Assembly: GCA_000004985.1 (NCBI GenBank)
Contig: GG738855.1
Length of the DNA stretch: 64,000 nucleotides
Strand: one strand, 5' to 3'
Origin: Naegleria gruberi
Lineage: Eukaryota
In this document: in pieces, positions 11,283 through 20,757 of the stretch
Layout of the letters: each line of letters opens with the position of its first letter
How positions within the stretch are numbered: the stretch's first letter is position 1
Notes under the pieces: generated by a model
Database searches by the model: none
Told to the model about the DNA's origin: nothing
What the model saw: only the letters and a program-made list of their open reading frames with translations
Program-made: the position numbers and the translations under genes

Positions 11283-11972
11283 ATGTTTGGTGAAGGAAGA
11301 AAAGAAAAAATGTCATCAAGCAACAACACTCATTCATCATCATCTTCCCTTCTCTTGGATATTGAAGACAATTTGAACAAAAAGAAAGAAAATTCAAATC
11401 CTATTAGTAAACCATCCTTTCTCAAATTATCACAGCAACAAGATGGCACAAATGAAGGAATGCCTAGATTTGCTCCTTCCGAGCTCTTGTCCAGACTACA
11501 AAGCTTTTTACCACAAATTAAAGAAGCAAACGAAAAGCTAGAAAGTGGTGAAGTTGAAGGCTTTTCGGATTGTGTTGAAATTATTGAGAATGATGATGAG
11601 GAGGAACAAGATGGTGCTCAACTTCAAGAGGAAAATTATAATGATGAAGAAGAATCCGAACATAAACCCTATGTGGAGATGAATGTAGTATTGGGAGTAT
11701 TAGAACAAAAACAAAAAACAAGCCTAATTACAGATATAGATGGACCAACAGAGGATGAACAAAAATTGGAAGAAAAAGATGAAGTTGTAAATTTGAGAAT
11801 TGGAAAGGATTTTACTCCACAAGAAAGCAAAAATATTGAACAGGATATGGTGGCATATATGAATATTATGAATTCTCTTCTCGGTTCTTCATCAGCATTG
11901 AAAAGAAAACGAGTAGAGGACAACAGTGATAGTGGCAGTAGTGGTGATAGTAGTGACAGTGATCAAGATTAG
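11283..11972 (+). CDS. hypothetical acidic, Ser-rich protein
   Basis: 229-aa ORF with an acidic low-complexity composition and a C-terminal DSGSSGDSSDSDQD tail. No recognisable domain. Confidence 0.35.
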   Translation: MFGEGRKEKMSSSNNTHSSSSSLLLDIEDNLNKKKENSNPISKPSFLKLSQQQDGTNEGMPRFAPSELLSRLQSFLPQIKEANEKLESGEVEGFSDCVEIIENDDEEEQDGAQLQEENYNDEEESEHKPYVEMNVVLGVLEQKQKTSLITDIDGPTEDEQKLEEKDEVVNLRIGKDFTPQESKNIEQDMVAYMNIMNSLLGSSSALKRKRVEDNSDSGSSGDSSDSDQD

Positions 11973-13420
11973 AACATTACATTTGCTACATATTTACGTT
12001 TCAAGTATTCAGCCATGGTTCTATCCTCTTTTGCTAATTCTGTTTGACCCAATGCCTCATAGGCTTCGCATCTATCTCTGAAAGCAGGGAAGAAGGTATT
12101 ATCAATATTAATTGCTTCAGTATTGTCATTTACACATTTCCAATACTCCTTCTTTCTGAAATATGACAGACCTCTCTTATTAAGTGCATTGACCTTGTAT
12201 TGTTTCAATATTTGTGCATTTGCTGGATTCTTCTTTAAACAAGTGTCAATATATTCCATACAGTATGCGAAATGAGAACGTGCCATTTCATGATCCTCAT
12301 ACTTTGTGTAAGCAATACCTAATTTCACCAAAATATCCACATAAACTGCATTAAAATCAATATTATTTCCTTTGGCAACACAATCCTTCACAAATAAATT
12401 AAAGTGATCAATAAATCTATTGTAGAATGAAAGAGCAACTTGATCATTACCCAATTTTGAGTGACAATCACCAGCATTCATCTCTGCATGGTATTCAGTT
12501 GGATCTATCTTTAAGATCTTATCATAACAACTGACTGCCTCTTTCAGATAATTTTCTCTTTCTTCAACTCGTGTGATTGGCAAAATTTTGGATAATTCTT
12601 CCAAAAAGATACCCTTAGCATAGAGTAGTCCACAATGTGTGTCGTCCTTTTCAATTGCTCCAGAAACGAGCTTGATTCCCTCCTTCAACATGTCAGTTTT
12701 TTGACTGAGGTCATACCTCTTATCTTGTGAAATTGATAACAAGTTGTAAGATAATTTTTCAATAATAGTTGAGGCCAAAACCGATCTATTTTCACACAAT
12801 TCCAAAGATTTTTCGAGAATTTGATTGGCTTCATTAATATTTCCAGTAGCTACATAACAATCATGTAAATTTACACAAATGTCAGAAATTTCATATTTTG
12901 TCAAAGATTCAGTTGGGATCTTTTCACATTGTTCCAGGTAGAATGATCTTAATTCCTCAAATAATGGCTTTGATTTTTCATATTCTCCCAAAGAAAAGAA
13001 CATTGTGCCAAGAAGTTCTTTCAGCTTGTAAATACTGACTTGGTAATGTTCATCACTTTCATCAATTTCTTCCGAAAAAGTAACAATTTTCTTTTCCAAA
13101 TACTTGATGGCATCCTTGTTATCTAAAACCCAAAATTCCTCTGCATTCTTAGCAGCATCACTAATCTTTTTCGAAAGTATTGATTCGTGAAATGGTGCCT
13201 GTATGAGGTGTGATGGTTTTTCTGGTTTTAAATTTGGATTTGTATCGATGGCCTTGTTGGACAAACCTGGCTTTTGATTTAATACCACACCACCATGATG
13301 AAGTGAGAAAGTTTTCAATTGTACTCTAGTATTTCCGAAAAATGTCAATGATGAAGAAGTTTTATAAAGACGATTGAGTCTGAGAATGCTTTGTCCAATC
13401 TTTTTCATTTTTTCTTTCAA
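11969..13420 (-). CDS. TPR-like helical repeat protein
   Basis: 483-aa ORF with repeated roughly 34-aa amphipathic helices (A..Y/F..G pattern). Its stop overlaps the stop of the convergent upstream gene by 4 nt. Confidence 0.45.
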   Translation of the reverse strand: MKEKMKKIGQSILRLNRLYKTSSSLTFFGNTRVQLKTFSLHHGGVVLNQKPGLSNKAIDTNPNLKPEKPSHLIQAPFHESILSKKISDAAKNAEEFWVLDNKDAIKYLEKKIVTFSEEIDESDEHYQVSIYKLKELLGTMFFSLGEYEKSKPLFEELRSFYLEQCEKIPTESLTKYEISDICVNLHDCYVATGNINEANQILEKSLELCENRSVLASTIIEKLSYNLLSISQDKRYDLSQKTDMLKEGIKLVSGAIEKDDTHCGLLYAKGIFLEELSKILPITRVEERENYLKEAVSCYDKILKIDPTEYHAEMNAGDCHSKLGNDQVALSFYNRFIDHFNLFVKDCVAKGNNIDFNAVYVDILVKLGIAYTKYEDHEMARSHFAYCMEYIDTCLKKNPANAQILKQYKVNALNKRGLSYFRKKEYWKCVNDNTEAINIDNTFFPAFRDRCEAYEALGQTELAKEDRTMAEYLKRKYVANVMF

Positions 13421-13465: not shown

Positions 13466-14650
13466 ATGTCCTTTCTCTCATCACAATATCAACCAACATC
13501 TGATAATAATTCATCGGCATCAAGCCGATCATCAATTTCCATGTTTCAGCCAACATTCTTTGAAATAATGACACAGGAAAGAATGATTTCTGGATTAAAA
13601 TCAGCGCTCCGATACATCTTGTCAATGGCTGCACAACGCAATTTTAGATATTTGAACATTTTGAAATATTATGATGAATTATTTGGAATACTTCAACTTG
13701 TGATCGAGAGACATTTTCTCTCAAATTTTGACTCTTCTTTTGCCGAGCATTTATTTGGATTGAAACGAGTGGATGCAAATCAATTTACACCTGATAATCA
13801 ATCAAAACCTTCATTTCTTACCAGCAAACAGAGAGCACAAAGTCTTGCATATCTTGTCTTTGTTCCTTATATAAAGGATAAATTGGAAAATTTATATGTT
13901 GATTTGAGAAGAGAGCATGCCTTGTCAGATATTAGAAATTCTACAGAATTGGATAATTCAATTATTCCTTCGGAAATGCTGCAAGAGGAGTCAAGTAATA
14001 TGGGATATCATAGATTTTCAAAAATTGTTAGGACATACTTTATGAAATTATGGCCATATATTAGTACTGCCTATGAGGGCTCTCATTTCTTTTTCATGTT
14101 CCTCTATCTGTTAAAGAGAGATTTCAAATATCATAATCCTTTCATGTATTTGATTGGACTATGTCTTAAGAGATTATCACCATCAGAACATGTACAACAT
14201 TTGAGTGCTATGAATATCAAGAGAAATAATCTCATTGAATCTTTCAAAAAATTGGGGGGAAATTTATTTGGATCTCTTTTTGGTTACATTATCAAATTTT
14301 TATACTCAATTTCTGATTACTCAACTCATTTACTCTTAGCAATAGCCTTCCTTTTCAAATTCTTTGAATGGTATTTCAATAATGAATCATCACTTCTCAC
14401 AAAGGGAAATATCATCATTCCACCTCCACCTTCACAACCAGAGAGAACTCCAGGAGGTCTAGAAATACCAACAAACCCAAGATTATGTCCATTGTGTAAG
14501 AAGGAAAGAAGAAATGCCACTTTATTGACAGTTTCTGGCTTTGTATTCTGTTACAAGTGTATTCAAAATCATTTGATAAGTCATTCAACCTGTCCAATCA
14601 CACTCTCTCCCTGTAACAAATCACATCTTGTAAAGATATTTGAAAATTAG
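13466..14650 (+). CDS. PEX12: peroxin PEX12 (RING-type peroxisomal import ubiquitin ligase subunit)
   Basis: The N-terminus matches the PEX12 Pex2_Pex12 domain (PTFFEIMTQERMISGLKSALRYI...FAEHLFGLKRV). The C-terminus is a degenerate RING (CPLCKKER...CYKCIQNH...CP). Confidence 0.8.
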   Translation: MSFLSSQYQPTSDNNSSASSRSSISMFQPTFFEIMTQERMISGLKSALRYILSMAAQRNFRYLNILKYYDELFGILQLVIERHFLSNFDSSFAEHLFGLKRVDANQFTPDNQSKPSFLTSKQRAQSLAYLVFVPYIKDKLENLYVDLRREHALSDIRNSTELDNSIIPSEMLQEESSNMGYHRFSKIVRTYFMKLWPYISTAYEGSHFFFMFLYLLKRDFKYHNPFMYLIGLCLKRLSPSEHVQHLSAMNIKRNNLIESFKKLGGNLFGSLFGYIIKFLYSISDYSTHLLLAIAFLFKFFEWYFNNESSLLTKGNIIIPPPPSQPERTPGGLEIPTNPRLCPLCKKERRNATLLTVSGFVFCYKCIQNHLISHSTCPITLSPCNKSHLVKIFEN

Positions 14651-15014: not shown

Positions 15015-15787
15015 ATGTTTCCGAACATTACTTTCCTAACAACAGGCGATTCTAAATTATTTAAAAAAGTTGAAAACTTTAAGAGAATGAAAGGAACTGA
15101 ATTAATGAAACTCATTCTTCTCAAATTAAATTCGCAAAATAACACCTCACAAACAGAGCCTCTAGAACATGCTCCACCATCACCAAGTGGATCAAAAAGC
15201 TTGTATTCATCTATGGCTTCTTGCACATTCTCTGAAGCCAAATTAGCAGTGCATCAATCTGATCCAATCCTTGTAAAAACCAGATTGAAGGAAGATGTTC
15301 ATGATGTGGATAATATGGTACTCTTATTGGATGTTAGAGATACAGATGAATATTCAGTATGTCACATCCAGACAGCTTATAGATATCCAGCTGCTACAGT
15401 GAATAGAACTGTTAATCCATTTACACCTGAAATGCTTTCTTTTGTAAGTGTTTAAATCTTTAAAATTGGAACCTTATTGGAATTATTAAGAAAAATCATC
15501 CTCTCAAAAAAATTGTAATATATGACAGGGACGAAAAGATTGCTTGTCCTGCTGCCAACCTTCTCTTTGAAAAGGGTTTTGATAATATTGTAGTTCTTAG
15601 TGGAGGCTTACAAGAATTCTTCCAAAAACACCCAGAGCTCATTGTTGGAGAAGTGCCAAAGGAATGGTATCCTCCTGTTCTAAAGAAGAAAACAAGACCT
15701 CCTTCTGTCGCTAGCTTGAACTCAACAAAGAAGGCTTCGATTACAAAAGAGAAGACGAAATCAACAGGACCAAAACCATTCAAGTAA
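15015..15787 (+). CDS. CEP41: centrosomal/ciliary protein CEP41 (inactive rhodanese domain), join(15015..15443,15491..15787)
   Basis: [41 protein letters not shown]|[41 protein letters not shown] aligns with human CEP41 across the splice. The 47-nt intron has a GTAAGT donor. An additional 5' exon is possible. Confidence 0.75.
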
Positions 15788-16513: not shown

Positions 16514-17152
16514 CTATTGACTGGTTGAAGTACCATTCTTATTTTCAATATCTTTTTTAATGTAAGAGAAATTAGCTTCGAGCTCTCTTTCCAATTCTTG
16601 TTCCTTCTCTTCACTCTTTTTAATCTTGTCATTGAACTTTTTAACCTTGGCTTCCAAATTCTTCCTCTTTACAGCCCAAATCAATAAACAAACAGAAATA
16701 AACAGAACACCAAATGCACGAATACCTCTATAAATAACCTTCTTTAACATGACTTCTGCATCCTTACGGGATTCCAATTCTTTTTGTAACATTTCTCTCT
16801 TTTGTTTCAGACTTTCGGCAGAGTCCATGATGAGAGAAGCTGTCGATTGCAAATTAAAAACATTTTCTGATGTTGTTGATTGTTCTGATGAGGTATTGGT
16901 TTGTTGTTCGTTGGTTGTTGTGGTAGGTTCTTGGGCTGGTGAATTTTCTACCACTGGTTCCGATAATGTTGAGGTTTTTTCTTCTTTACTTTCTGATTGT
17001 TCTGATGAGGTATTTGTTGTTGTTGTATTATTGGATAATAATCTATTAGAAAATTGAGTGGAAAAACATCTTGATGAGAAGGTAGTGGCCAATCTTTGGT
17101 TATATCCTGTTGGCAATCGGAGTAATTGTTTGGTAAATTGTCGTGATAACAT
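16514..17152 (-). CDS. hypothetical mitochondrial-type membrane protein (presequence-like N-terminus, T/S-rich region, one TM helix, C-terminal coiled coil)
   Basis: 212-aa ORF. It has a basic, hydroxylated N-terminus without acidic residues (MLSRQFTKQLLRLPTGYNQR), a TM helix AFGVLFISVCLLIWAV, and a KKSEEKEQELERELE tail. Confidence 0.35.
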   Translation of the reverse strand: MLSRQFTKQLLRLPTGYNQRLATTFSSRCFSTQFSNRLLSNNTTTTNTSSEQSESKEEKTSTLSEPVVENSPAQEPTTTTNEQQTNTSSEQSTTSENVFNLQSTASLIMDSAESLKQKREMLQKELESRKDAEVMLKKVIYRGIRAFGVLFISVCLLIWAVKRKNLEAKVKKFNDKIKKSEEKEQELERELEANFSYIKKDIENKNGTSTSQ

Positions 17153-17248
17153 TTTTTTGTTGTGAATTTAAAAATTGAAAATTATTACACAAGTACCTGC
17201 AAGGTAAATTGAAAATCTAAATCATTTCTTTAGGGTTTTATGGTACAA

Positions 17249-18123
17249 TTAATGAGAGAGTAAATTCAAACGATCTTTCCATGCTGTATCTGCCGAGTGG
17301 AAGGTAATAATTCTCTTTTCGTCTTGCTCATCTGCCACTTCAGAGTTCATGTCTGTATCGACTGGTTCGAAAATAATACAGAGAATGTGACATTTGGTTG
17401 TGTCTGACATGGCATCTTTGATGATAGTGTGATGTGGTTGCTTCATCACATCTTCTTCCAATAATCTATTTCCCCATTCAATGAGCGAAATTCCACTTGA
17501 AAAAACAGATGGTAAATCCAATCTATCAAATCGTTCCAATCTATAGAGGTCAATATGATGAATAGGACTATTAAATTATTATATTTGTTAAATTAAAATT
17601 CATTGTAATAATACGAAACTTACACTTTCTTGCTCGTCATTTTGGATTCGTAAATATTATCTAGCAAAAATGTTGGTGATGGAACATTGAGATTCATATC
17701 CTTTTCCAATACTCTGATAACGTGTCTTGCAAAAACAGATTTTCCACTTCCCATATCACCAATTAATAAGACAACATCTGTAGATTCCAACATGGATGAA
17801 AATCTTTCGGCCAAATTTCTAGTTTCTTCAACTGAATTGACAACAAAAGTTGCTTCAAAATAGGTGGGAGTGACCTGGGATGGTATTTCTCTAGCCGAAT
17901 ATTTATAATCATCCATTTTCTGTTGCTTTTTCAACTCTGGCCCATTTAAACAAGAGTGAGTACTGAATGTTCTTTCTCCGATGAATTTTGTAGATTGATT
18001 CCAATTAGTGGTAGTCCAGTTGGCCGCACTTCCAAGTATAAACTTTCCATTGTTTTTGGTGATGGATTGAATTTGATGGATGAGATTGATACTTCTTCTT
18101 CTGCTGCTGTTGCTCGATAACAT
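17249..18123 (-). CDS. tsaE: TsaE/YjeE-family P-loop protein (bacterial t6A tRNA-modification component), complement(join(17249..17567,17624..18123)). A long N-terminal extension suggests organellar targeting.
   Basis: It carries the P-loop LIGDMGSGKSVFARHVIR, then VPSPTFLL, then IHHIDLYRL, then ISLIEWG, which are the TsaE signature blocks. They are split by a 56-nt intron with a GTAAGT donor. Confidence 0.7.
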
Positions 18124-18477
18124 ATTGATTAATGGACAATAGAAGTCTACTACTGTGTGTGTTAATCAAAAATGAAGCTTTGAGGCAAGTTAAAGTTGTG
18201 TGATGATATTTTTTTTTTGTATGAAAGAAGGGTTTGATTCTGATCTTGTTTGTGTGGCTTAGAGTCTATTTATACAATGAAGCCGAAAATAGGAAGTATT
18301 ATTCAAGAATGTACTTGATAAATGACTACTTTAAATAATTTGATTTTACAATGCAAAGTATCATCTACAGAGAGTTTCTATTAAAAGTCAACTCTTGTCG
18401 AACTAAAGTATTTATCCTGTAGAACACAATGATGGAAATTAGTCATCTCCTTGTTCAGGAATAAGTATTTATTAAGC

Positions 18478-20151: not shown

Positions 20152-20757
20152 TTATTGAGAGTAATAATCCTTTCTTGGTTTCCAAGTTTTCATTAGTTCA
20201 TTCTTTTGTTTCAAATTCTTAATAGCCTCATTTGGGTCAATAATTGCTAAATATCCAAAATTGAGTGGATGAGTTTGACACAAAGATGGTGTAGCTGTTT
20301 CAGATAATCTCTGATTGACCTCTACTAATTTTCCTTTCACATATGATTGTATTTCCAATGAGCAAATTGTTTCTGGAGACTCATTTGAGGCATATTCAAT
20401 TTTACAAATTATTGTGTTTGGTTGAATTGAGTGACATGGTAATTTTTGTTTGTTCTTTTTTCCATTGTTGTTATTTTGTTGTTTGACCTCCTTTGGTTTT
20501 TCATCATCCTCCATGGCATTATCGGATGGTGTTGTTGTAGTTGGTGGTTGAATTGGAAAATGCACTTTTACTACTCGGAAAGTATTTTGGCAAAGAAAGT
20601 GCTTCGGAGATAAACAAATCACAAATAAACCATTCTTATGTTCTTGAATACATAAATCATAATTTAAAATTGGGTCATTACTGGTTGTTGCAGGTTGAAT
20701 ATAGTAATCATCAATATTCTCGTTGATTAAAAGTTGGGTACGTTCACATTTACTCAT
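20152..20757 (-). CDS. hypothetical protein
   Basis: 201-aa ORF with an ATG start. It has a Cys/His-containing N-terminal half and an N/K-rich linker. Confidence 0.35.
   Translation of the reverse strand: MSKCERTQLLINENIDDYYIQPATTSNDPILNYDLCIQEHKNGLFVICLSPKHFLCQNTFRVVKVHFPIQPPTTTTPSDNAMEDDEKPKEVKQQNNNNGKKNKQKLPCHSIQPNTIICKIEYASNESPETICSLEIQSYVKGKLVEVNQRLSETATPSLCQTHPLNFGYLAIIDPNEAIKNLKQKNELMKTWKPRKDYYSQ

Follow-up and report, generated by a model that had tools for sequence, protein, structure and literature searches.

A probable mitochondrial TsaE encoded by an intron-containing nuclear gene of Naegleria gruberi

Within a 64,000-nucleotide stretch of the Naegleria gruberi genome (the window), we find a nuclear gene that probably encodes a mitochondrial form of TsaE (YjeE/YdiB; PF02367, TIGR00150), the protein that in bacteria serves as the ATPase subunit within the threonylcarbamoyl-transfer complex TsaB-TsaD-TsaE. 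We confirm that the feature is a real nuclear, intron-containing gene of the TsaE family; it is already known in the sense that public databases contain it, although with an incorrect gene model. An initial annotation of the window had proposed a bacterial t6A component retained for an organelle, and this proposal is supported by the presequence-like character of the N-terminal extension and by the listing of the protein, together with a TsaD/Qri7 homologue, in the portion of a published mitochondrial proteome table covered here. The proposal started from the premise that mitochondrial t6A is thought to need Qri7/OSGEPL1 and Sua5 alone, and rightly so: according to reviews of t6A synthesis, eukaryotes lack homologues of TsaB and TsaE, and Qri7 and Sua5 are all that mitochondria use. 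A literature search (TsaE together with Naegleria, protists or chloroplast, and the relevant accessions) found no paper discussing a eukaryotic TsaE.

The gene lies on the minus strand (18123..17249) and consists of two exons and one intron, giving a spliced product of 272 amino acids (Table 1). The intron-containing TsaE homologue that had been proposed at 17249-18123 is thus borne out, with a GT-AG intron and with a product that passes both TsaE HMMs. The intron (17623..17568) is the sole GT-AG choice that yields one open frame with HIDLYRL and IEWG restored, and the junction of the two exons is spanned both by the Pfam TsaE alignment (aa 96-214) and by the region of the AlphaFold2 (AF2) model with pLDDT above 90. 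The predicted splice links ...AAAGT to TCCTATT. Exon 2 encodes the HxDxYR and EW motifs, the C-terminal expansion and the final strand and helix; peptides of the predicted 272-aa protein encoded there include LDLPSVFSSGISLIEWGNR and IITFHSADTAWK. A near-identical contig (L075) that carries the exon-2 ORF was considered as a cDNA and rejected, being genomic with the intron retained.

Orthologues of the same architecture are present in N. lovaniensis, N. fowleri, Willaertia magna and one environmental relative (L076). They are 50-65% identical within the domain and unconserved at their N-termini. A phase-2 intron occupies the shared position in N. lovaniensis (147 nt), W. magna (about 50 nt) and the environmental relative (39 nt). 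The orthologues in the three named species lie on contigs of 296-605 kb, and the N. gruberi gene itself lies on a 613-kb scaffold, has a GC content typical of the window (33%) and is flanked by ordinary eukaryotic genes, for example those for Pex12 and a TPR protein. Scaffold, neighbours, conserved intron and orthologues together uphold the earlier claim of a bona fide nuclear gene rather than contamination.

Table 1. Coordinates in the window of the TsaE gene and of the features of its predicted product.
Feature	Coordinates	Strand	Residues and remarks
Exon 1	17624..18123	(-)	Codons 1-166 and two bases of codon 167; N-terminal extension, Walker A, SPTF
Putative mitochondrial presequence	17965..18123	(-)	aa 1-53; candidate MPP site R51-T-F53/S54, predicted cleavage after F53
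Linker, poorly conserved	17860..17964	(-)	aa 54-88, between presequence and TsaE domain; disordered through about aa 61
Walker A / P-loop GDMGSGKS	17737..17760	(-)	aa 122-129; fits GxxGxGK(T/S)
SPTF motif	17668..17679	(-)	aa 149-152; fits SPT(F/Y)
Intron, predicted spliceosomal	17568..17623	(-)	56 nt, GTAAGT...AATAG, phase 2
Exon 2	17249..17567	(-)	Last base of codon 167 to TAA stop
HIDLYRL	17537..17557	(-)	aa 171-177; HxD(L/V)YR motif, exon 2
IEWG	17471..17482	(-)	aa 196-199
C-terminal expansion, eukaryote-type	17315..17461	(-)	aa 203-251, including an acidic loop; precedes last strand with invariant Arg252

Membership in the TsaE family was assessed by the HMM searches that the initial annotation had suggested, and both curated thresholds were exceeded: PF02367 (TsaE) gave 91.4 bits, the gathering score being 26.6 (E=5.6e-26), and TIGR00150, an NCBIfam equivalog model, was passed narrowly (62.5 bits against a cut-off of 60.1). 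The gamma-proteobacterial model NF007931 remained below threshold (37 versus 246), as expected for a non-enterobacterial member. All four of the TsaE blocks originally quoted are present (Table 1), and their co-occurrence is far beyond chance. In a 47-sequence alignment the invariant residues include G125, G127 and K128 of the P-loop, S149 and P150 of the SPTF motif, H171, D173 and R176 of HIDLYRL, E197 and W198 of IEWG, and R252. The SPT(F/Y) peptide is totally conserved in TsaE and in the bacterial complex reaches into TsaD's active site; the Asp of the HxD(L/V)YR motif (here Asp173) is catalytic and its Tyr (here Tyr175) acts as a switch, while the Glu of the EW pair (here Glu197) is a Mg ligand, the Trp (here Trp198) a switch residue, and an Arg (R252) stacks on the adenine (Missoury et al., 2018; PMC6009658). 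N. gruberi retains every residue to which that study gives a part in ATP/Mg binding, in hydrolysis or in contact with TsaD (K128/S129, S149-P-T151-F, H171/D173/Y175/R176, E197/W198 and R252).

Structure prediction agrees with these assignments. The best sequence matches in the PDB are all TsaE, and the AF2 model, with pLDDT above 90 over aa 89-272, has a predicted fold in keeping with TsaE, namely a mixed seven-stranded sheet with flanking helices. When the model was searched with Foldseek, the top eight matches were TsaE/YdiB/HI0065 structures with target-normalised TM scores of 0.68-0.81 and E values of 2e-11 to 1e-9; the next match had an E value of 7e-3. The part that follows the EW pair comprises 74 residues in N. 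gruberi and 67-84 in heterolobosean TsaE. Counted by regex landmarks from EW to the C-terminus, its median length is 88 residues among representative matches of a eukaryote-type profile search versus 43 among 69 prokaryotic TsaE.

A long N-terminal extension had also been noted at the outset; it is present, but at some 85-90 residues (about 88) it is larger than the 70 or so first estimated. The folded domain has its start around aa 89, and the P-loop occupies aa 122-129, as against about residue 38 in bacterial TsaE. The extension and the P-loop share one ORF that is open without interruption from position 18123, where its ATG lies, and an in-frame stop precedes this ATG by 15 codons. The extension is therefore not a mis-joined exon, which the initial annotation had allowed for. 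The chance of 88 codons staying open is about 0.001 by composition. Residues 1-49 include five K/R and no acidic residue, the first acidic residue being at position 50, and the first 40 residues hold 5 K/R and 11 S/T. An amphipathic segment at aa 9-19 has the maximum hydrophobic moment (0.64), and the AF2 model predicts a helix at aa 5-23; pLDDT is below 50 at aa 25-61, and the means of successive 10-residue blocks across aa 51-90 are about 40, 52, 66 and 85. Together with the published TargetP mitochondrial score of 84 given in the part of the proteome table covered here (PMC8134430, Supplementary Data 2), this presequence-like composition answers the suggestion that the N-terminus be examined for targeting.

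Comparison among the Heterolobosea points the same way. An R-x-(Y/F) motif is aligned in all four heterolobosean orthologues, and in three of the four species the N-termini are basic and free of acidic residues through the first 35-49 positions. Presequence-like character is seen also in N. lovaniensis and Willaertia and is less clean in N. fowleri, and the called N-terminus of the environmental orthologue is acidic, an upstream exon possibly being missing there. The sequence of aa 54-88 is not conserved among orthologues. Judged on its sequence, the extension appears presequence-like in that, as expected of a presequence, it differs from species to species.

The public model at this locus, XP_002680077.1 (NAEGRDRAFT_57360), is a chimera that joins TsaE exon 1, by a splice to about 17046, to a downstream gene and omits exon 2, including the HxD(L/V)YR motif; taken separately, the downstream protein has 212 aa. 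The exon 1 translation and residues 1-167 of this model agree at 100% identity. The public Willaertia model is wrong at its 3' end, and it should be corrected along with the N. gruberi reference model. In the part covered here of the table for the experimentally defined N. gruberi mitochondrial proteome, XP_002680077.1 falls within the 946-protein mitochondrial cluster, with a TargetP value of 84, 4 unique peptides and an abundance rising toward the densest fraction (Horvathova et al., 2021; PMC8134430, Supplementary Data 2). Peptide arithmetic on this entry shows that the 68 covered residues (4 peptides) are not explicable by the non-TsaE half alone at one missed cleavage or fewer. This indicates, by arithmetic rather than from the spectra, that peptides from the TsaE part are among those detected for the chimeric protein.

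An organellar TsaD partner, which the initial annotation had advised looking for, is listed in the same portion of the mitochondrial proteome: the TsaD/Qri7 homologue XP_002678425.1 (PMC8134430), which in a PDB search scores 145 bits to E. coli/Salmonella TsaD versus 120 bits to yeast Qri7. NgTsaD keeps the FDK and SGxKT motifs, which are common to E. coli and Salmonella TsaD in alignments; the lysines of these motifs, which hold the ATP gamma-phosphate, were dropped as discriminating TsaE contacts because they are too widely conserved across the TsaD/Qri7 family. Within this part of the table no TsaB was found by name, by the GPGSFT motif and its variants or by the xIDTS motif, and no Sua5/YrdC by name or by the TVYGL motif; the matches that did appear there, to COX1 and to an acyl-CoA dehydrogenase containing the letters YRDC, were false. 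Ten unusually long TsaE homologues were scanned and none was a fusion with TsaB or TsaD. The sole fusion among them, to an LRR protein, is probably a merged gene model.

Long TsaE homologues with an N-terminal extension, all with automatic annotation only, occur in green algae (Chlorella, Chlamydomonas, Volvox, Pleodorina and Scenedesmus), in diatoms (Thalassiosira, Cyclotella, Discostella and Attheya), in a MAST stramenopile and in Bigelowiella natans, alongside many other eukaryote-like sequences. The view first taken, that TsaE is normally absent from non-plant eukaryotes, accords with what the reviews say, but the protein is less rare than that view assumed, since it is found in diatoms, MAST and Bigelowiella. 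As far as sequence can tell, the Naegleria gene belongs to a eukaryotic TsaE family that is widespread, with several hundred eukaryote-type clusters across Discoba, Archaeplastida, Stramenopiles and Rhizaria. Among prokaryotic TsaE, Alphaproteobacteria account for most of the closest ones (39 of 72 motif-matched loci), and these also form the sister cluster in a neighbour-joining tree; in that tree, built from a similarity-biased sample, the heterolobosean group has 100% bootstrap support and a single eukaryotic clade 28%. The best non-heterolobosean matches to N. gruberi TsaE score 101-104 bits (a metagenome protein, P0006, followed by Chlorella P0012 at 101), and the alphaproteobacterial matches 84-86 bits. 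We infer that the gene goes back to the alphaproteobacterium from which mitochondria arose and that animals and fungi have lost it.

By analogy with the bacterial system we also infer a TsaE-TsaD interaction and a t6A role in Naegleria, which would proceed as follows. The mRNA would be spliced once, with removal of the 56-nt intron, and the 272-aa precursor would be imported into the mitochondrion by a basic presequence of about 50 residues. The mature P-loop ATPase would then serve the TsaD/Qri7-type threonylcarbamoyltransferase of the mitochondrion in the way that bacterial TsaE serves its partner: ATP-bound TsaE would dock at the entrance of the TsaD active site, with its SPTF loop inserted and the ATP gamma-phosphate held between both proteins, and ATP hydrolysis would free TsaE and reset TsaD for the next round of t6A37 formation on mitochondrial ANN-decoding tRNAs. 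It is conceivable, and we advance it tentatively, that Naegleria mitochondria and by extension many algal and protist organelles run such a bacteria-like, TsaE-assisted t6A cycle, the "Qri7 alone" arrangement of yeast and humans being a derived simplification. In the strongest version of this proposal there is no TsaB, and the eukaryote-type TsaE may act on a TsaD homodimer by way of the RLDLP helix and the C-terminal expansion. To our knowledge such a TsaD2-TsaE mode has been described in no organism.

Three other accounts of the gene deserve consideration. That it reflects bacterial contamination or a gene-prediction artefact, with the extension or exon 2 not part of the gene at all, is effectively refuted: the public model is indeed a chimera with a neighbouring gene and the Willaertia model is also wrong at its 3' end, but these errors belong to the public models, and the gene model given here restores a complete TsaE domain. 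The position of the GT-AG intron is moreover kept in three other genomes or contigs, the scaffold is long, of 33% GC and lined with eukaryotic genes, and the extension lies in one ORF with the P-loop. It is unlikely, though the least unlikely of the three, that the protein, while a genuine mitochondrial TsaE, reached Heterolobosea later by horizontal transfer, the donor being an alphaproteobacterium or else some other eukaryote, for instance an alga. A patchy spread among named eukaryotes (Heterolobosea, Chlorophyta, diatoms/MAST and Bigelowiella) would fit such a transfer, as would best non-heterolobosean scores barely above those of alphaproteobacteria and the low bootstrap value for one eukaryotic clade. 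Against it, eukaryotic TsaE share derived traits that prokaryotic TsaE do not have, namely SPTFLL(D/Q)N, RLDLP, the long post-EW insertion and the N-terminal extension, and members of the family come from at least four supergroup-level lineages, some of them lacking plastids; the intron position is common to Naegleria and Willaertia, and any transfer must therefore be old.

We think it somewhat less likely still that the protein is a repurposed ATPase of TsaE fold which, without TsaB, has taken on a non-t6A role, kinase-like or regulatory for instance, whether inside the mitochondrion or elsewhere. Such a change of role would be in keeping with TsaB not being found in the covered part of the mitochondrial proteome table, and with the extra C-terminal expansion and the distinctive RLDLP helix, which lies where bacterial TsaE contacts TsaB/TsaD. 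In bacteria TsaE needs the asymmetric TsaB-TsaD heterodimer for binding and does not bind TsaD homodimers, and B. subtilis TsaE (YdiB) has autophosphorylation activity (PMC6009658), both of which would suit it as well. Yet strict conservation extends to all ATP-site residues and to the SPT(F/Y) loop, for which entry into the TsaD active site is the sole role known, the equivalog model TIGR00150 is passed, albeit narrowly, and a TsaD homologue is listed for the same compartment in the covered part of the proteome. A mitochondrial TsaE remains our preferred reading.

If the Naegleria TsaE is mitochondrial, as is probable, mitochondrial t6A synthesis probably does not follow the "Qri7 plus Sua5 only" picture in all eukaryotes. 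Reviews hold TsaB and TsaE to be bacteria-restricted and for this reason propose them as antibacterial targets. An intact, conserved and probably mitochondrial TsaE in Naegleria contradicts the bacteria-only statement and limits the statement that Qri7 and Sua5 suffice, and it offers a way to ask how organellar t6A synthesis was simplified and whether TsaE works without TsaB. N. fowleri is a lethal human pathogen and humans have no TsaE, so that the protein is a conceivable selective target.

Set beside bacterial TsaE of solved structure (T. maritima 6N9A/6S84, B. subtilis 5NP9 and H. influenzae 1HTW), the N. gruberi protein has the same predicted fold, the GxxGxGK(S/T) and SPT(F/Y) loops, HxD(L/V)YR, the EW switch and the adenine-stacking Arg, and it is 41-43% identical to alphaproteobacterial TsaE over about 115 residues. 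Unlike them, it is nuclear-encoded with a spliceosomal intron, carries an extension of about 88 aa with presequence character, has SPTFLL in place of SPTFTL, shows RLDLP where a helix meets the TsaB/TsaD bundle, and is longer after EW. The cytosolic and archaeal analogue, Bud32 of KEOPS, is likewise described in reviews as an ATPase "switch" that enables turnover of a Kae1/TsaD-family transferase, but its kinase fold is unrelated and without sequence similarity, and the Naegleria protein is not of the Bud32 family.

A likeness is also seen to the TsaE of green algae, diatoms, MAST and Bigelowiella, which share with Naegleria the N-terminal extension, VPSPT(F/Y)LL, (I/F)HH(I/F)DLYRL and RLDL, a long, variable and often acidic post-EW insertion and a C-terminal W..RL; the best alignments of these eukaryote-type TsaE to N. 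gruberi are 46-47% identical. Naegleria has no plastid, and its TsaE must therefore serve the mitochondrion or another non-plastid site. The Qri7/OSGEPL1 and Sua5/YRDC system of yeast and humans operates in the same compartment on the same modification, and Naegleria, too, has a mitochondrial transferase of the TsaD/Qri7 family. Whereas the yeast and human Qri7 system is described as needing no accessory subunit, Naegleria keeps TsaE in addition, which implies a more bacteria-like, ATPase-assisted cycle.

The minus-strand gene initially annotated as an intron-containing TsaE homologue opens at an ATG (18123) that lies 15 codons downstream of an in-frame stop, and its exon 1 ORF of 167 codons ends ...YESKMTSKKV; the splice donor, GTAAGT, lies at 17623. 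Among the downstream AG acceptors compared, that ending at 17568 alone leaves one uninterrupted frame, which reads ...KKVPIHHIDLYRLERFDRLDLP...IEWG... to a TAA at 17249-17251, and for this reason we assign the gene two exons and one intron, with a spliced product of 272 aa.

Features of the TsaE locus and neighbouring genes (window positions)
Feature	Position	Strand	Remark
Exon 1	18123..17624	minus	ORF from ATG to donor
Intron	17623..17568	minus	56 nt, phase-2, GT-AG; single open frame restored
Exon 2	17567..17249	minus	to TAA
R-x-(Y/F) motif, R51-T-F53	17965-17973		candidate MPP cleavage site
Downstream gene	16514-17152	minus	212 aa
Pex2/Pex12 RING peroxin homologue	13466-14650	plus	116 bits
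Multi-TPR protein	11969-13420	minus	
Rhodanese-like ORF	15015-15455	plus	sub-threshold match
Glycine-cleavage-H-like ORF	20152-20757	minus	sub-threshold match

Four lines of evidence (HMMs, solved structures, predicted structure and functional residues) identify the protein as TsaE. It passes the thresholds of both Pfam PF02367 (91.4 bits, E 5.6e-26; gathering score 26.6), whose alignment over aa 96-214 spans the splice junction, and, narrowly, the NCBIfam equivalog TIGR00150 (62.5 versus 60.1). The top sequence matches among solved structures are the TsaE proteins of T. maritima, B. subtilis and H. influenzae. In an AlphaFold2 model built from 47 aligned sequences, pLDDT stays above 90 from aa 89 to the end of the protein, aa 5-23 form a helix and aa 25-61 are disordered; Foldseek against the PDB returned eight TsaE chains (E 2e-11 to 1e-9; target-normalised TM 0.68-0.81) before the next match at E about 7e-3. 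The four sequence blocks quoted initially are all present (GDMGSGKS, 122-129; SPTF, 149-152; HIDLYRL, 171-177; IEWG, 196-199), and every residue that Missoury et al. (2018; PMC6009658) assigned to ATP/Mg binding, hydrolysis or contact with the TsaD active site is kept (K128/S129, S149-P-T151, H171/D173/Y175/R176, E197/W198 and R252). Gene structure, TsaE HMMs, fold and motifs together confirm the initial observation.

Over its first 167 residues the protein shows 100% identity to the public N. gruberi model XP_002680077.1 (EFC47333.1; NAEGRDRAFT_57360; UniProt D2V794), carried on a 613 kb scaffold. That model is a 342 aa chimera in which the same donor is spliced to a distant acceptor near 17046, so that TsaE exon 2 is omitted along with the 96-nt intergenic spacer and the downstream gene's frame is entered at codon 37. 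The initial gene model is correct and the public one wrong, because the former restores the HxDxYR and EW motifs and the complete TsaE fold, because both halves lie in one protein in three orthologues (N. lovaniensis, 278 aa; N. fowleri, 277 aa; Willaertia magna), and because intron position and phase are homologous in relatives, the intron lying just 5' of x(I/V)HHIDLYRL in N. lovaniensis (147 nt), Willaertia (about 50 nt) and the Naegleria-like environmental contig L076 (39 nt). The claim of a spliceosomal intron is thereby supported. The chimera affects the database entry and any proteomics search based on it. The public Willaertia magna model (P0004) carries a spurious 3' intron (locus L002, 4001-5013), and reading through it gives ...RTITLMSKSKDWKNRLEKVL followed by a stop, in agreement with the W-K-x-R-L C-terminus conserved among the Naegleria proteins.

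The N-terminal extension is about 88 residues, rather than the "about 70" first proposed, with the P-loop starting at residue 122-125, whereas its median start in 69 prokaryotic TsaE proteins is residue 40. It is not the product of a mis-joined exon, since extension and P-loop share one ORF; the probability of the extension ORF remaining open by chance is about 0.001. Its first 40 residues contain 5 K/R and 11 S/T, with an amphipathic stretch at aa 9-19, and acidic residues start only at position 50. N. lovaniensis and Willaertia have a similar presequence-like character, and N. fowleri a slightly less clean one. The extensions are unalignable across species save for an R-x-(Y/F) motif in all four heterolobosean orthologues (CRNY in the other Naegleria species, KRY in Willaertia), which, from its match to the R-3/R-2 pattern, may be an MPP cleavage site.

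By fractionation of N. gruberi, Horvathova et al. (2021, Nat Commun; PMC8134430) defined a mitochondrial cluster of 946 proteins. In the part of their Supplementary Data 2 (sheet 1) covered here, XP_002680077.1 is listed with 'TsaE [Acetobacter aceti]' as best BLAST match (6e-11), a TargetP mitochondrial score of 84, 4 unique peptides (19.9% coverage) and an intensity increasing toward the densest, mitochondria-richest fraction. Since this entry is a chimera, we checked the origin of the peptides by arithmetic, taking 4 tryptic peptides to cover exactly 68 residues. With up to one missed cleavage, no combination falls wholly within the neighbour's half; with two, only two do, both requiring the transmembrane peptide, whereas hundreds fit within TsaE exon 1. 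On this peptide arithmetic, as distinct from spectra, TsaE was therefore very probably detected in the mitochondrial proteome. The presequence-like N-terminus, the TargetP score and the proteome entry support the organellar role initially proposed.

Contamination is excluded: the gene sits in ordinary eukaryotic DNA of about 33% GC, near Pex2/Pex12 RING and TPR proteins, and is, as first claimed, a bona fide nuclear gene. The N-terminus of the downstream 212-aa protein (MLSRQFTKQLLRLPTGYNQRLATTFSSRCFST) resembles a presequence; the protein also contains a low-complexity region rich in T/S/E/Q, a single predicted transmembrane helix and, at its tail, a coiled coil. It matches no Pfam family and may itself be a mitochondrial membrane protein. 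An ENA metagenome contig (L075; PRJEB11402; 1219 nt) is 97.4% identical to 17036-18259, intron included, so that environmental sample contained a close relative of N. gruberi. The TsaE gene on L076 (1084-1923; JGI metagenome 3300002220), with the same phase-2 intron, adjoins an Arf-family gene, like its N. lovaniensis counterpart. The N-terminus called for this L076 gene is acidic instead of basic, which may mean that an exon further upstream was missed.

A heterolobosean profile recovered Chlorella, Pleodorina, Chlamydomonas and an MMETSP transcript before any bacterium. An exhaustive search through 1.84 billion cluster representatives with an HMM profile of eukaryote-type sequences gave 548 clusters at E<=1e-30, of which the top 150 scored at least 144 bits. 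Among 151 representatives (142 from this search plus eleven earlier eukaryote-type matches), compared with the 69 prokaryotic proteins, median length was 239 versus 155 aa, median P-loop start residue 78 versus 40, and the median number of residues after EW 88 versus 43. Members include green algae (Volvox, Chlamydomonas eustigma, Chlorella variabilis, Scenedesmus), diatoms (Thalassiosira, Cyclotella, Discostella, Attheya, Detonula), a MAST stramenopile and Bigelowiella natans. They share VPSPT(F/Y)LL, (I/F)HH(I/F)DLYRL, RLDL and a C-terminal W..RL, along with a variable, often acidic insertion. The Naegleria gene thus belongs to a broad family of eukaryotic TsaE proteins, labelled automatically in databases and not acknowledged in the t6A literature, Thiaville et al. 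included; our literature search found no paper discussing eukaryotic TsaE. The gene is not of a new kind, being already in databases, wrongly modelled, and in the mitochondrial-proteome table; what is new is its corrected structure and conserved intron, and its recognition as part of this large, overlooked family. By implication, the "minimal mitochondrial t6A system" generalisation needs revision.

As to origin, in a motif-seeded scan covering the genomes of 185,579 prokaryotic species, 72 TsaE loci were recovered, 39 of them in named Alphaproteobacteria, including Micavibrio, Rhodospirillales, Acetobacter and Hyphomicrobiales, which also gave the best tblastn matches. A neighbour-joining tree of 84 sequences and 141 columns recovered Heterolobosea as monophyletic (100% bootstrap) and placed all eukaryote-type sequences in one clade beside the alphaproteobacterial cluster, the latter grouping with only 28% bootstrap. 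In pairwise BLAST the best non-heterolobosean matches of the N. gruberi protein were a metagenome protein (P0006, 104 bits) and the Chlorella homologue (P0012, 101 bits), versus 84-86 bits for the best alphaproteobacteria. These comparisons fit inheritance from the mitochondrial ancestor with multiple losses, a history that is not proven because the sample is similarity-biased and the protein short.

The part of the N. gruberi mitochondrial-proteome table covered here also supplies a candidate for the TsaD partner sought initially, the TsaD/Qri7 homologue XP_002678425.1, which scores higher against bacterial TsaD (145 bits) than against yeast Qri7 (120 bits); no TsaB or Sua5/YrdC appears there by name or motif. 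The XP_002678425.1 model begins MERPKILHEQ..., which in E. coli and Salmonella TsaD aligns near residue 24, so that roughly the first 20-odd domain residues are missing and the model is probably 5'-truncated; an 18-residue insertion follows the FDKTARLL motif. None of ten long TsaE homologues was a TsaB or TsaD fusion, and a 1020 aa EukProt sequence (P0139) with a TsaE domain C-terminal to a long leucine-rich-repeat protein is probably a merged gene model, not a real fusion.

By analogy with bacteria, the best-supported mechanism is a mitochondrial TsaE acting on TsaD. The precursor would be taken into mitochondria, and the mature, ATP-bound ATPase would dock on mitochondrial TsaD with its SPTF loop inside the active site; TsaD would complete the gamma-phosphate site, and hydrolysis would free TsaE and reset TsaD for the next tRNA, as in the bacterial cycle. 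The partner of bacterial TsaE is only the asymmetric TsaB-TsaD dimer (PMC6009658). Either Naegleria has an undetected TsaB, or eukaryote-type TsaE is adapted to a TsaD homodimer, in which case the adaptation would involve its C-terminal expansion together with its conserved RLDLP helix, which sits where contact with the helical bundle is made.
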